Source of the DNA: an uncultured Alphaproteobacteria bacterium
Lineage (GTDB): Bacteria; Pseudomonadota; Alphaproteobacteria; CAAGCB01; CAG-977
DNA: 64,000 bases
Reading direction: 5' to 3'
NCBI GenBank assembly: GCA_934277945.1
Contig: CAKQWA010000006.1
Coordinates: 12,173 to 76,172 of the forward strand
The translations under genes and the position numbers were made by a program. This document shows, piece by piece, positions 30,779-32,796 of the stretch (within the stretch, counting starts at the first letter, position 1; each line of letters begins with the position of its first letter). Below the pieces are notes generated by a model. It did no database searches, had not been told where the DNA came from, and saw only the letters and a list, made by a program, of their open reading frames with translations.

Positions 30779-30887
30779 GCAAAAATTGCCTACTAACATA
30801 TTGAAAAAACTTGATTTTTTTATTTATTTCCTTTTCAAAGCGTGATATCTTCAAAATAAGGGATGTTTTAAAAAGGGAACGCCTGTC

Positions 30888-32375
30888 ATGACGACGATGC
30901 CTTACAATTATTCTTACAACAACTCCACCGCGTTGAGCGCGAGCCTGAACGCGTCGGTCAAACGGTCGCAATGGCTGCGGCAAGCCTACGAAAAGAACAC
31001 GACGGCGCTCGGCACGGGAAAGAACGTCAACACGCCCTACGACGACGCCATACGCTATTTCAAGGACGCGCATCTGTCCGAAAAGGCGCAGAGCATCACG
31101 GATTTGCTGGACCATATTTCCATCATCACGTCGACGCTGAATTCTGTCGACGATTCCCTGACCACGCTGAACGATTTGGTCGACATGGCGAAAGGCGCGG
31201 CGACGAAAGCGCGTCAGACGCTCGACACGCCCGCGATCATCACGGGAAACGTCAAACTGCTCAAAGAGCGCGCGATGAGTGAAATCGGCGGCTGCAAGGG
31301 CGGCGACGTTCTGTGTCTGCGCTACGGCGAGGCGAACAAGGCGGAATCCTCGAAAACGGTGTCGAAACTTGACAAACTGTCCGATTTCGGCATTACGCTG
31401 GGCGAAAATTTCTCCGTCAAGGTCGGCGACGACGACTGGGTCGACATTCCCGTCACGAATCAGGACATGACGCTGGACGCGTTCATGAAAGAAGTCGTCT
31501 TGACGCTGGGCGAAGACCGCGTGAAATACACAATCAAGGACAACAAACTGACGCTGGAAACGACGGATCAGACAGGCATTATTTTCTCCAACCGCCATTA
31601 CGACATATCGACGAAAGAATTGATCGCAAACGACACGTCGCCGAGCGTCGCGGAAAAACTGGGTTTCGACCAACAGGTTTATCTGACCGTCGACGATGAC
31701 GACACCGTCGAATCGCTGATGCTTGAAATCAATAAAATCGACGGATTTGAAGCCAAACTCGACAAAAACAACCACCTGCAAATTTCGTCGCAGTACGGCG
31801 ACGACATCATTGTGACGGACTTTTCGGGCACAACGGCGAAAGCGACCGGCATCGACGGCATGGCGCGCGACGGTCTGCACGTCCGCCGCGACGAAGCGAA
31901 AAACTACAACGACATTCTCGACCAAATCGACGAACTGGTCAAAGACAGCATCTTCAACGGCGTGAATCTGCTGGCGGGCGACGATATGCGCGCGGTCTTT
32001 GACGAAAAAGCGCAGAGCATCCGCGAAATTTACGGCGTGAATCTGGATGCCGAATCCATGGGGCTGGCACGCGAACAAAACGATTGGGCGAGCACGCAGG
32101 ACATCGACTCCGCGCTGACCTCCCTTGAAAGCGCGATCAATCAAATCAGAAGCGCGGCGCAGTATTTCGACCGCTCGAACGCAATGGTGTCGTCGCGCGA
32201 AACGTTTTTAAACGCGCTGTCCGCCACTTTCCAAAAAGGCGCGGACGCCATGACTTTGGCGGATTTGAACGAAGTCAGTTCGCAGTTGCTGTCCATTAAA
32301 ACGCAACAGGACATCGCCGCCCAAGTCATCAGTTTGACGTTGGAAATCGATTCGGATATACTGTCCTTATTCTAA
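30888..32375 (+). CDS. Flagellin-family protein (divergent; flagellin or hook-associated FlgL-like).
   Basis: N-terminal and C-terminal helical regions match the flagellin D0/D1 pattern. N-terminus: NNSTALSASLNASVKRSQ...LNSVDDSLTTLNDLVDMAKGAAT. C-terminus: ALTSLESAINQIRSAAQYFDRSNAMVSSRETFLNALSATFQKGADAMTLADLNEVSSQLLSIKTQQDIAAQVISL. Followed by flbT. Confidence 0.6.
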   Translation: MTTMPYNYSYNNSTALSASLNASVKRSQWLRQAYEKNTTALGTGKNVNTPYDDAIRYFKDAHLSEKAQSITDLLDHISIITSTLNSVDDSLTTLNDLVDMAKGAATKARQTLDTPAIITGNVKLLKERAMSEIGGCKGGDVLCLRYGEANKAESSKTVSKLDKLSDFGITLGENFSVKVGDDDWVDIPVTNQDMTLDAFMKEVVLTLGEDRVKYTIKDNKLTLETTDQTGIIFSNRHYDISTKELIANDTSPSVAEKLGFDQQVYLTVDDDDTVESLMLEINKIDGFEAKLDKNNHLQISSQYGDDIIVTDFSGTTAKATGIDGMARDGLHVRRDEAKNYNDILDQIDELVKDSIFNGVNLLAGDDMRAVFDEKAQSIREIYGVNLDAESMGLAREQNDWASTQDIDSALTSLESAINQIRSAAQYFDRSNAMVSSRETFLNALSATFQKGADAMTLADLNEVSSQLLSIKTQQDIAAQVISLTLEIDSDILSLF

Positions 32376-32394
32376 TTTATGCAAGGAGGCTTTC

Positions 32395-32796
32395 ATGCCG
32401 TTAAAAATCGAACTGAAACCGGGGGAACGCCTGATTATCGGCAACACGCTGATTACGAACGACAAGGATCGCGTGAAATTCTTTATCGAGGGCAACGTGC
32501 CCATTTTGCGCGAAAAATACGTCTTGTCGCAAAAGGAGGCGAACACGCCCTGCAAGCGCCTGTATTACACGTTGCAGGAAATGTATCTGGCGAAAGACCC
32601 GAAAGCCCTGCACGCGACCTATTTCGACCAGATTGCGCAAATCACGAAAGCCGCGCCCAGTCTGGCGATGAAAATCGACGTCGTAAACCAGAACATTTTG
32701 GAGGGCGATTATTACAACGCCCTGAAAAACATGATGAAAGTCATTGAAGCGGAAGAAAAAATCATGAATTTCGCCGCTCCCGCGCAAGAAGGCTGA
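32395..32796 (+). CDS. flbT: Flagellin synthesis regulator FlbT.
   Basis: MPLKIELKPGERLIIGN...ILREK...TP...LYYTLQEMYL matches the FlbT family. AAGGAGG Shine-Dalgarno 7 nt upstream. Confidence 0.75.
   Translation: MPLKIELKPGERLIIGNTLITNDKDRVKFFIEGNVPILREKYVLSQKEANTPCKRLYYTLQEMYLAKDPKALHATYFDQIAQITKAAPSLAMKIDVVNQNILEGDYYNALKNMMKVIEAEEKIMNFAAPAQEG

Follow-up and report, generated by a model that had tools for sequence, protein, structure and literature searches.

A diverged flagellin gene and flbT in gut Alphaproteobacteria: probably an operon with a rewired promoter

The stretch of DNA analysed here (the window, 64,000 nucleotides in all) carries a gene for a 495-aa protein which, judged by sequence and predicted fold, is a diverged structural flagellin, and this gene is directly followed by flbT. 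The two genes probably form a flagellin-flbT operon with a rewired promoter. We consider it likely that the operon is functional and belongs to a flagellated gut alphaproteobacterium with the rest of its machinery encoded elsewhere. Because the operator upstream is typical of flagellar genes, an ordinary flagellar gene pair lying apart from the rest of the machinery is the most likely reading.

Results

The flagellin gene occupies positions 30888-32375 of the plus strand, as supported by the ORF call and by profile, fold and BLASTP matches. A diverged flagellin-family protein had been described here before, and NCBIfam, the family profile, the fold model and BLASTP all pointed to flagellins. 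The Pfam model Flagellin_N (PF00669) gave 21.1 bits, which is below its gathering score of 26.6, and no match to Flagellin_C (PF00700) was found in the protein. The best family-level matches were to large alphaproteobacterial flagellins, namely the NCBIfam subfamilies PRK12688 and PRK14708 (E~1e-32), with a score of 112 that is far under the curated cut-off of 614 bits; the PRK12688 match spans residues 315-493. The family profile matched Caulobacter FljM/N/K/L with E values of 5e-14 to 9e-13, in which the N-terminal side was aligned to FljM residues 4-107 and residues 340-495 were aligned throughout with FljM 116-272 (domain E=1.4e-11), and the solved-structure sequences matched by this profile were flagellins without exception. 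In BLASTP, residues 41-111 were aligned to flagellins, and five flagellins were 31-38% identical to the C-terminal region in alignments of 165-233 aa. The E values across all flagellins compared ranged from 1e-26 to 1e-75; they were about 1e-31 for the three flagellins encoded in one complete flagellar cluster of an alphaproteobacterium, and a sister rumen MAG has a flagellin that aligned over the full length (29% identity, 482 aa, E=3e-75). Among the best 150 of 2062 relatives, full-length matches were concentrated in the top ten, and the clade's flagellins appear from their sequences to form a small, separate branch.

The AlphaFold model of the protein (pLDDT 84) places the D0/D1 helices at residues 11-110 and 332-494, the N-terminal helices being 11-43 and 54-110, and between them, at roughly 113-330, a beta-rich insert about 215 aa long. 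The top PDB matches in Foldseek were all filament flagellins, with a target-normalised TM of 0.75 to Caulobacter FljK/L/M/N. The C-terminus, ...ILSLF, is the end of the Caulobacter flagellins, and the ND1 motif GxK-VN---D--xxF and conserved CD1/CD0 regions are shared with the large alphaproteobacterial flagellins of L030, L031, L034 and L035. The N-terminus MxTMPYN, which is unusual among the large alphaproteobacterial flagellins, is invariant among the orthologs; an RNA-level cause of this invariance was rejected because the synonymous sites vary.

It had also been suggested that the protein might be FlgL (HAP3), the hook-filament junction protein, rather than a flagellin. FlgL belongs to the same superfamily and has helical termini and a similar length (493 and 505 aa in L030 and L031), and the Pfam Flagellin_N score of those two proteins is weak, like that of ours. 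However, the FlgL of L030 gave no BLASTP match at E<=10, that of L031 matched over just 22 residues (E=0.08), and FlgL families were absent from the NCBIfam results at E<=1, so that the 495-aa protein differs from FlgL in lacking significant pairwise similarity and any FlgL-model match. The ILSLF end, the solved-structure matches and the pairing with flbT, as for the flagellins in L031, L034 and L105, likewise speak for a flagellin. With flagellins of the same clusters at E~1e-31 and nothing significant for FlgL, the FlgL assignment is very improbable and was excluded.

The second gene, flbT, lies at 32395-32796 on the plus strand. FlbT represses flagellin synthesis post-transcriptionally. The 133-aa product is, by its sequence, unambiguously FlbT: Pfam PF07378 was matched with E=9e-37 and 126.3 bits (cut-off 27) over residues 3-124 of the model's 125 positions, and the NCBIfam equivalog PRK12791 gave 138.6 bits, slightly short of its cut-off of 153. 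Its identity is 46-54% to FlbT proteins encoded in or near flagellar gene clusters and 60-76% across the clade, as compared to 46-61% for the neighbouring enzymes. In all 18 orthologs, as in L031, L034 and L105, flbT directly follows the flagellin gene; in L032 it directly precedes it. The spacer between the two genes counts 19 nt and not 20 bp, as had been given along with the correct gene order, and it carries the flbT Shine-Dalgarno sequence AAGGAGG at 32383..32389 (plus strand); all orthologs have spacers of 12-21 nt with AAGGA(A/G). Such a short spacer implies co-transcription of the two genes. A possible internal flbT promoter at 32334-32362 was discarded as a chance match, which is not conserved in the orthologs.

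The flanking genes are those named in the preliminary description, as confirmed by Pfam and the ORF calls: a transglutaminase gene upstream (called at 29897-30778) and the convergent prfC downstream (32860-34452, minus strand). RNA folding predicted a bidirectional intrinsic terminator common to flbT and prfC at 32826..32861, bordered by an A15 run (32810-32824) and TTTTCTTT. The plus-strand hairpin has -19.7 kcal/mol and is followed by UUUUCUUU, and the minus-strand hairpin has -26.3 kcal/mol; a minus-strand terminator was also returned by the terminator scan.

The leader at 30779-30887 is AT-rich, as previously noted, and from its sequence features it appears to be mostly promoter and operator. 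A perfect 17-bp palindrome, TAGGCAAAAATTGCCTA, lies at 30776..30792 and overlaps the transglutaminase stop codon, TAG; it is proposed as an FlbD/ftr-type operator. The palindrome was kept in 18/18 aligned orthologs, and GGCAA-N3-TTGCC was present exactly once per locus and always at the same position in 24/24 loci. An IHF-like core, TTTCAATATGTTA (TCAA-N4-TTA), is located on the minus strand at 30794..30806, between operator and promoter. The IHF consensus is WATCAANNNNTTR. This site has a constant position in 15/18 orthologs, where the N4 is variable and the flanking bases are fixed, and it has been lost through a 31-bp deletion in L014 and L015. Ortholog conservation marks an extended -10 element, TGaTATCTT, at 30843..30851 on the plus strand, with TGn-TATNNT in 17/18 orthologs at constant spacing from the operator, and transcription is presumed to start near 30858. 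The palindrome centre and the -10 are 62-63 nt apart in 16/18 orthologs; in L014 and L015 they are 32 nt apart, which puts the operator of these two at about -44, a position unlike that of classical enhancers and not obviously that of a repressor.

A sigma28 or sigma54 promoter had been envisaged for the leader, and neither was present in the 20 ortholog leaders: no sigma54 GG-N10-GC at a conserved position on the coding strand and no conserved match to sigma28 (TAAA-N15-GCCGATAA) or to the CtrA box (TTAA-N7-TTAA) were found. Canonical sigma54 flagellin promoters do occur in sister gut clades; such promoters were present in L033, L034, L035, L063, L086, L098 and L105, and a weaker one in L120.

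The whole leader of 110 nt had been offered as the target of FlbT. Most of it is better explained as promoter and operator, and what stands is a candidate target in the transcribed 5'UTR, which is probably about 30 nt long (30858..30887, plus strand) and contains the Shine-Dalgarno sequence GGGA at 30875-30878. This Shine-Dalgarno sequence was predicted to pair with an upstream U-rich tract with P=0.70 versus 0.46 in shuffles; the mean over the 18 orthologs was 0.62 versus 0.41 (Wilcoxon p=0.002), and the pairing was absent in 4-5 orthologs. RNAalifold on the orthologs gave no alignable consensus structure of the 5'UTR, and Rfam gave no match to it.

The palindrome contains the looser pattern GGCA-N5-TGCC. 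The exact palindrome was intergenic in 96/120 metagenome loci. In at least nine of these it lies directly upstream of a flagellar gene (fliF in three loci, a flagellin gene in three, a rod gene in two and fliK in one), and in a tenth locus it precedes a TPR gene, with flaF and flgL about 3 kb away. Ten flagellar loci of 96 correspond to a binomial P of about 5e-8 under a null of 1%, which is a generous one, and these metagenome flagellar loci usually have sigma54 promoters too. None of the remaining singleton genes scanned downstream of the palindrome was flagellar. Gut metagenome contigs with the palindrome upstream of RhuM/DAO genes were set aside as belonging to other organisms (34-44% GC, no homology to the window). 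In L030 and L031, GGCA-N5-TGCC marks flagellar sigma54 promoter regions. The reported target classes of FlbD are the fliF, rod, fliK and flagellin promoter classes (PMC4083442, PMC3930126), and the flagellar neighbours of the palindrome match this set.

The arrangement of transglutaminase, flagellin and flbT genes was found in 17 GTDB species and further contigs (at least 18 species of gut/rumen Alphaproteobacteria) from human, primate and ruminant guts. The preliminary description had listed a relic of a degraded flagellar system among the possibilities. A decaying, now functionless remnant would fit the divergence of the flagellin below the Pfam thresholds and the isolation of the pair from other flagellar genes, but more than 18 species, spanning 32-98% identity, have intact reading frames, dN/dS stays at 0.07-0.14 in each part of the flagellin (N-terminal, middle and C-terminal), and the identical protein recurs on many independent contigs. 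The strongest constraint is on the N-terminal part in close pairs (omega 0.03-0.05), and the mean identity is 56% in the middle domain and 63-67% in the termini. Promoter, operator and Shine-Dalgarno sequence have all been kept as well. With gene, flbT and promoter maintained in at least 18 species at such dN/dS values, decay is excluded at the gene level, and we give this explanation hardly any credence.

Discussion

The flagellin-flbT pair stands alone in its surroundings. Pfam annotation of essentially all large ORFs revealed no other flagellar genes in the window and 10 kb on each side (~84 kb), and flagellar genes were also absent from about 340 kb of orthologous loci. Queries for FlaF, FlgL, FlgK, FlgE, FlgI, FlgH, FlgA and FliX from two alphaproteobacterial flagellar clusters had no significant tblastn match in the window or its 10-kb flanks; two FlgK proteins detected no flgK and three FlaF queries nothing significant in the window or the orthologous loci, and PF07309 was not found among the annotated neighbours. 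These searches by Pfam and tblastn agree with the earlier remark that no flaF, flgK/L or other flagellar gene is nearby. Elsewhere flaF usually adjoins flbT, as in L030, L031 and L105. The flagellin/flbT unit of sister gut clades likewise lies apart from most flagellar genes, and in one of these clades fliK-flgD-flgE are found 6 kb from it.

One explanation of this isolation is that the clade has lost its flagellar apparatus and that flagellin and FlbT now form a self-sufficient unit whose new role is not motility, in which the flagellin would, for example, be displayed on the surface or secreted and act on the host, and its promoter would have become sigma54-independent. In its favour are the lack of flagellar genes near the pair in any of the 18 species, the missing flaF in the window and the orthologous loci, the replacement of the sigma54 promoter of the sister clades, a conservation of the middle domain (56% versus 63-67% in the termini) that is unusually high for a flagellin outer domain, and the stable linkage to an ATP-grasp/transglutaminase operon. 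The genomes of the RF32 order from the rumen are reported to be reduced, at about 1.6 Mb (PMC8199421), which is relevant if the clade belongs to RF32; our search of the literature on flagella or motility in RF32, CAG-239 and Azospirillum sp. CAG returned nothing usable. Against it, D0/D1, which are needed solely for type III export and polymerisation, are the most constrained parts, and in sister clades, one of which has hook genes, it is normal for a flagellin/flbT unit to stand alone. We know of no role of FlbT outside flagellin control. The flagellar-regulon operator is kept in every species, which implies the presence of its regulator, and an operator of flagellar type argues against the absence of a flagellar regulon elsewhere in the genome. 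The transglutaminase linkage is missing in L034 and L035; this synteny is clade-specific and therefore looks like inherited gene order, and a functional link to the ATP-grasp/transglutaminase operon was rejected on the same ground as the less simple explanation. A stand-alone module is unlikely in our view.

For an ordinary flagellar gene pair with its partners encoded elsewhere, the following mechanism may be proposed. Transcription would start from a sigma70-type extended -10 element, upstream of which lie the FlbD/ftr-type operator and the IHF-like site. The D0/D1 helical core of the product would serve export and polymerisation and carry the beta-rich outer domain of about 215 aa. FlbT would limit the translation of the flagellin mRNA through the short 5'UTR and, by analogy with Caulobacter FlbT-FljJ, would be assisted by unexported flagellin until the hook-basal body exports it. 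The remaining flagellar genes, including flaF, are predicted elsewhere in the genome. We infer the FlbT mechanism and the existence of these genes, and we likewise infer an operator-binding protein and its sign, be it activator or repressor.

The preliminary description assumed that FlbT acts together with FlaF on flagellin mRNA. This premise is dated: according to PMC7591256 and the work cited there, FlbT binds the flagellin FljJ, which is its co-repressor, secretion relieves the repression, and FlaF is a secretion chaperone. A flagellin-flbT pair is therefore coherent without an adjoining flaF.

Compared with the flagellins FljJ-FljO of Caulobacter crescentus, our protein shares the D0/D1 core (TM 0.75 to FljK, E about 5e-14 to FljM) and the C-terminal end, and the locus shares with the FlbT/FlaF checkpoint an FlbT homologue and, by analogy (PMC7591256), a flagellin co-repressor. 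However, the Caulobacter flagellins have about 273 aa and ours has 495 aa owing to the beta-rich insert; Caulobacter has a flaF-flbT operon, whereas here flbT is co-transcribed downstream of the flagellin gene with no flaF nearby; and the present locus has one flagellin gene and a non-sigma54 promoter. The large alphaproteobacterial flagellins share the gene order flagellin-flbT(-flaF) in L031, L034 and L105, and differ in that the sister genes have canonical sigma54 promoters. In the CsrA-FliW-flagellin switch of Bacillus and Campylobacter (PMC4894983), unexported flagellin also feeds back, by way of a small regulator, on how its own mRNA is translated, which makes the switch a functional analogue of the flagellin-FlbT pair, although the two systems use unrelated proteins and the present locus has neither csrA nor fliW.

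The proposed assignment of the palindrome to an FlbD/ftr-type flagellar regulator draws on the FlbD/ftr enhancers of the class II-IV promoters of Caulobacter, with which it has GGCA-N5-TGCC in common. The architecture is also shared in the IHF-like site between operator and promoter and in the occurrence of the 17-mer at fliF, rod, fliK and flagellin promoters of other bacteria, the target classes reported for FlbD (PMC4083442). It differs in that the -24/-12 sigma54 element is replaced here by an extended -10, and since no sigma54 promoter accompanies the enhancer-like operator and the IHF-like site, the FlbD analogy is incomplete.

Our results add to the catalogue of gut flagellins a diverged subfamily that lies below Pfam recognition, and this bears on motility and host sensing of flagellin in a poorly known gut lineage. 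The regulatory by-product is more useful, in that the 17-bp palindrome marks flagellar promoters across diverse metagenomic bacteria, and together with the non-sigma54 promoter it offers a testable case of re-wiring in the alphaproteobacterial flagellar hierarchy. If the flagellar apparatus were lacking, the pair would be a rare case of a selected, stand-alone flagellin-FlbT module. In a milder version of this unlikely reading, the clade would be flagellated and an FlbD-type regulator would drive a sigma70-type promoter from a class I/II position, a way of acting that would be new for this family of regulators.

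Results

The window, with a GC content of 55.6%, stems from an uncultured human-gut alphaproteobacterium. Both open reading frames lie where the preliminary description had placed them, a flagellin-family ORF of 495 aa at 30888-32375 (+) and an ORF of 133 aa at 32395-32796 (+), and its reading of a diverged flagellin gene followed by flbT was confirmed, except that the spacer, which holds the Shine-Dalgarno sequence AAGGAGG of flbT (+), is 19 nt instead of 20. The sequence leaves no doubt that the 133-aa product is FlbT, which matched Pfam PF07378 with E=9e-37 and 126 bits (cut-off 27); the NCBIfam equivalog PRK12791 scored 138.6 bits, slightly below the cut-off of 153. 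The term "highly diverged" is justified for the 495-aa protein because it reached only 21.1 bits with Flagellin_N of Pfam, as compared to the gathering score of 26.6, and had no match to Flagellin_C of Pfam. Contigs from Hadza and other gut metagenomes, up to 206 kb long, carry the identical protein, and close variants occur on contigs reaching 413 kb.

The flanking genes are, as had been described, a transglutaminase gene upstream (called at 29897-30778), with a circularly permuted ATP-grasp/alpha-E gene 5' of it, and prfC downstream, which is convergent with flbT. The absence of other flagellar genes nearby also held: none was present by Pfam among essentially all large ORFs of the window plus 10 kb on each side, where tblastn with FlaF, FlgL, FlgK, FlgE, FlgI, FlgH, FlgA and FliX of two alphaproteobacterial flagellar clusters likewise found nothing. 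In all orthologs flbT is apparently co-transcribed with the flagellin gene, as indicated by a spacer of 12-21 nt and its own Shine-Dalgarno sequence. A promoter-like match near the 3' end of the flagellin gene was rejected as an internal flbT promoter because it is not conserved in the orthologs. The operon ends in a bidirectional terminator that it shares with prfC, and the unbroken A15 run at 32810-32824, which lies between flbT and the hairpin of this terminator, provides prfC termination with its U-tract on the opposite strand.

The window protein is a flagellin. Its NCBIfam matches were flagellin subfamilies only (PRK12688 and PRK14708, E~1e-32), with no FlgL model among them, and the family profile matched the solved Caulobacter flagellins FljM, FljN, FljK and FljL (E 5e-14 to 9e-13), the last 157 residues aligning end to end through the terminal ILSLF. 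The AlphaFold model (pLDDT 84) predicted helices at residues 11-43 and 54-110 in the N-terminal part and at 332-353, 403-454 and 460-494 in the C-terminal part, with a beta-rich insert between the two parts; the top Foldseek matches of this model in the PDB were all filament flagellins, with a TM-score of 0.75 across the whole Caulobacter FljK. The possibility that the gene encodes FlgL was weighed against L030, a complete flagellar cluster of a 3.9-Mb alphaproteobacterial genome, which contains flgA-flgH, fliX/flgI, three flagellin genes, two flaF, flbT, flgL-flgK-flgE and flbD. The window protein matched the three flagellins of this cluster at E~1e-31, whereas its 493-aa FlgL was not matched even at E<=10, and the outcome was the same with a second alphaproteobacterial flagellar cluster (L031) and with the gut loci L032, L034 and L035; FlgL identity was therefore rejected. 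The alignment with a 480-aa flagellin from the rumen MAG GCA_017507765.1 extended over the full length (29% identity in 482 aa, E=3e-75). When 1.84 billion representatives were searched exhaustively, 2062 relatives were obtained, and among the best 150 the full-length matches cluster in the top ten, so the protein belongs to a small side branch of alphaproteobacterial large flagellins. The insert (window 31190-31880, residues ~113-330) carries two similar segments, T(V/L)xxhhxxINxxxGhxAxLDxxxxLxhxS, that recall the "IN" motif of flagellins, and Pfam reported no such family there. The key arginine is apparently missing from the ND1 stretch, which we take to be the counterpart of the TLR5-contact motif of Salmonella FliC.

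Orthologs were collected by a scan of GTDB species representatives, and further contigs were added through a protein index. The flagellin gene was present in 17 GTDB species, 32-41% identical to the window protein, all of them uncultured Alphaproteobacteria that came from the gut of humans, primates, ruminants or horses. The order ATP-grasp/alpha-E, transglutaminase, flagellin and flbT was kept in all 19 contigs reaching far enough upstream, and FlbT identity across species (60-76%) was above that of the neighbouring enzymes (46-61%) and of the flagellin. The dN/dS ratio (Nei-Gojobori, 11 ortholog pairs) was 0.07-0.14, with low values in each third of the protein (N-terminal, middle and C-terminal) and a minimum of 0.03-0.05 where close pairs were compared over the N-terminal helices. 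The suggestion that the gene is a relic of a degraded system was abandoned, since purifying selection acts on all thirds, the gene is kept in 17 species, and both FlbT and synteny are conserved. The constraint is on the protein and not on the RNA, because the flagellin start MxTMPYN is invariant while synonymous sites vary. The middle domain (56% mean identity, as compared to 63-67% at the termini) is less variable than usual for flagellin outer domains. The window's own species was missing among the GTDB matches (best 41%), yet NCBI assemblies hold near-identical proteins; either it has no representative in the GTDB collection or this stretch was masked.

Most of the 110-nt leader (30779-30887) would be promoter and not 5'UTR, as read from the aligned upstream regions of 18 orthologs. 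The perfect palindrome TAGGCAAAAATTGCCTA at 30776-30792 overlaps the transglutaminase stop codon, and its core, GGCAA-N3-TTGCC, was found as one copy per locus at a constant position in 24 of 24 loci, with no further copy in the window. It is followed 3' by an element, TAAYATATTGAAA, whose minus strand reads TCAA-N4-TTA, presumably the core of the IHF consensus, and which is kept in 15 of the 18 orthologs with variable N4; then come a T-rich tract and an extended -10 (TGn-TATNNT, 30843-30851). The distance from palindrome centre to -10 is 62-63 nt in 16 orthologs and 32 nt in the orthologous loci of UBA6347 (L014:4094-4195) and HGM16793 (L015:9911-10012), in which a ~31-bp deletion takes out the IHF-like site, so that the palindrome is shifted from its usual place at about -75 of the inferred start to about -44. 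The deletion measures exactly three helical turns, an indication that operator phasing matters. The sigma28 or sigma54 promoter considered in the preliminary description was not borne out: sigma54 (GG-N10-GC), sigma28 and CtrA elements were absent from any conserved position in the ortholog leaders.

Transcription would start ~7 nt past the -10, giving a 5'UTR of ~30 nt in the window and ~40 nt in most orthologs. Folding predictions pair the Shine-Dalgarno sequence GGGA of the flagellin gene (30875-30878) with a U-rich tract 5' of it; the mean pairing probability in the 18 orthologs was 0.62 as compared to 0.41 in shuffled leaders (Wilcoxon p=0.002, on sequences that are not independent), and the effect was absent in 4-5 of the 18. 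RNAalifold gave no consensus structure for the ortholog leaders, and there was no Rfam match. The leader may plausibly hold the FlbT target, as had been proposed, and the tendency to Shine-Dalgarno occlusion speaks weakly for it.

The palindrome, or the motif GGCA-N5-TGCC that it contains, was also found at other flagellar loci. This motif occurs four times in L030 (0.44 expected), always in flagellar intergenic regions: twice between fliX and flgI, once 69 bp 5' of a flagellin sigma54 promoter (TGGCCC-N5-TTGC) and once 77 bp 5' of the flgE sigma54 promoter; the single copy in L031 is upstream of flgE. The exact 17-mer TAGGCAAANNTTGCCTA was sought in metagenomes and found at at least 120 loci, being intergenic at 96 of the 120 listed by a simple ORF criterion. 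It lies directly upstream of fliF at at least three loci (L081, L117, L125), of flagellin at at least three (L049, L098, L105), of a rod protein gene at at least two (L063, L086), of fliK at at least one (L120) and, at at least one (L071), of a TPR gene ~3 kb from flaF and flgL. In L063, L086, L098 and L105 the palindrome precedes a sigma54 -24/-12 element, with a weaker candidate in L120, and L105 reads two palindromes, sigma54 promoter, flagellin, flbT and flaF. Ten of the 96 listed intergenic sites at flagellar loci correspond to P ~5e-8 when the null is set generously at 1% per site. In the fliF promoters of L081, L117 and L125, (C)CATTAAC, resembling a CtrA half-site, comes straight after the palindrome, which looks like a composite control region conserved across unrelated contigs.

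The remaining downstream genes among the listed loci were RhuM (8 loci), DAO (4 loci) and unrelated singletons. Of the eight loci with the RhuM-family gene (L094, L095, L099, L111, L113, L118, L127, L150), at least six have the palindrome 109 nt upstream of it, and the four with the DAO oxidoreductase gene (L041, L045, L121, L144) have it 16-20 nt upstream. These contigs, mostly from human-gut metagenomes with 34-44% GC, are closely related repeats within each kind. Because the organisms are unrelated to that of the window, the palindrome in them probably serves another purpose or belongs to a mobile element.

Among the matches listed in the FlbT search, the window clade (60-99% identity) was followed by a very abundant human-gut clade (52-56%; L032, L033), in which flbT is upstream of one or two flagellin genes and fliK-flgD-flgE lie 6 kb off behind a perfect sigma54 promoter. 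The intermediate lineages have an isolated flagellin-flbT pair (L034) or flagellin, a TPR gene and then flbT (L035), with no further flagellar gene within 10 kb of the pair in either. L033, L034 and L035 share the flagellin/flbT unit with the window clade but differ in their canonical sigma54 promoters at the flagellin genes (TGGCATACTATTTGCA, TGGCAAGGTTCTTGCA and TGGCATGCAAATTGCA, respectively), which the window clade lacks. The comparison of L032-L035 showed that these gut alphaproteobacteria normally have the unit in isolation, and that the window clade is distinctive in having replaced the sigma54 promoter while retaining the operator. The flagellin upstream region of L034 has no GGCA-N5-TGCC beside its sigma54 promoter; two copies and one GGAA-N5-TGCC variant lie within the flagellin gene (L034:8757-8961, GCA_017507765.1) and may be enhancers downstream of the start.

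Several other genes were observed. The window contains a complete ATP synthase operon at ~2845-9750 (L028:1100-7999) including AtpR and the "ATPase gene 1" protein, the gene set of an N-type (Na+-type) ATPase; a 327-aa Fic/DOC domain protein fused to a C-terminal MerR-type HTH (12796-13779, -), adjoining a ClpB-like AAA+ gene (10597-12789); and an AadA-like nucleotidyltransferase, possibly for aminoglycoside resistance (42671-43639, -), and a serine resolvase (50042-50713, -), which hint at mobile DNA in that part. A type II CRISPR-Cas locus of the same species (cas9, cas1, cas2; L028:16806-20717) is located ~6-10 kb beyond the left end, and two adjacent TPR-plus-methyltransferase proteins of 542 and 471 aa (L029:5254-8297) are encoded to the right of the window; TPR-containing enzymes such as FlmG modify Caulobacter flagellins. 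The very long antisense ORFs over real genes (30738-32144, -, 468 aa; 29882-30799, -, 305 aa; 2929-6015, +, 1028 aa) are artefacts, easily mistaken for genes, which arise from the GC-rich third codon position.

Discussion

In Caulobacter, FlbD acts negatively on PfliF and positively on the sigma54 promoters of classes III and IV, and its reported targets are class II fliF, class III rod, hook and fliK, and class IV flagellin genes (PMC4083442, PMC3930126). The gene classes downstream of the palindrome equal these targets exactly. From this target set, and not from a match to the published ftr motif, we infer that the palindrome is an FlbD-type site; it is conserved in the window clade, and its regulator is therefore presumably present in the clade.

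According to the work covered in PMC7591256, Caulobacter FlbT binds the flagellin FljJ, the two together repress flagellin mRNA translation until flagellin is exported, and FlaF is a secretion chaperone. Because FlbT pairs with flagellin and FlaF acts as a chaperone, a flagellin-flbT operon is coherent as a feedback unit without adjoining flaF. A literature search for flagella in the window lineage found nothing. Like its counterparts in related gut lineages, the pair is separated from the other flagellar genes, and recruitment of the flagellin-like protein for a non-motility role, as had been raised, seems to us improbable: the D0/D1 constraint, the conserved FlbT, the flagellar-type operator and the hook genes of the sister clade point, indirectly and without proving it, to an intact flagellar system elsewhere in the genome. 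The pair is a real, selected flagellin-flbT operon, a diverged member of a known family, and its modest novelty is regulatory, namely a flagellar operator and an IHF-like site combined with an extended -10 promoter that has no sigma54 element.
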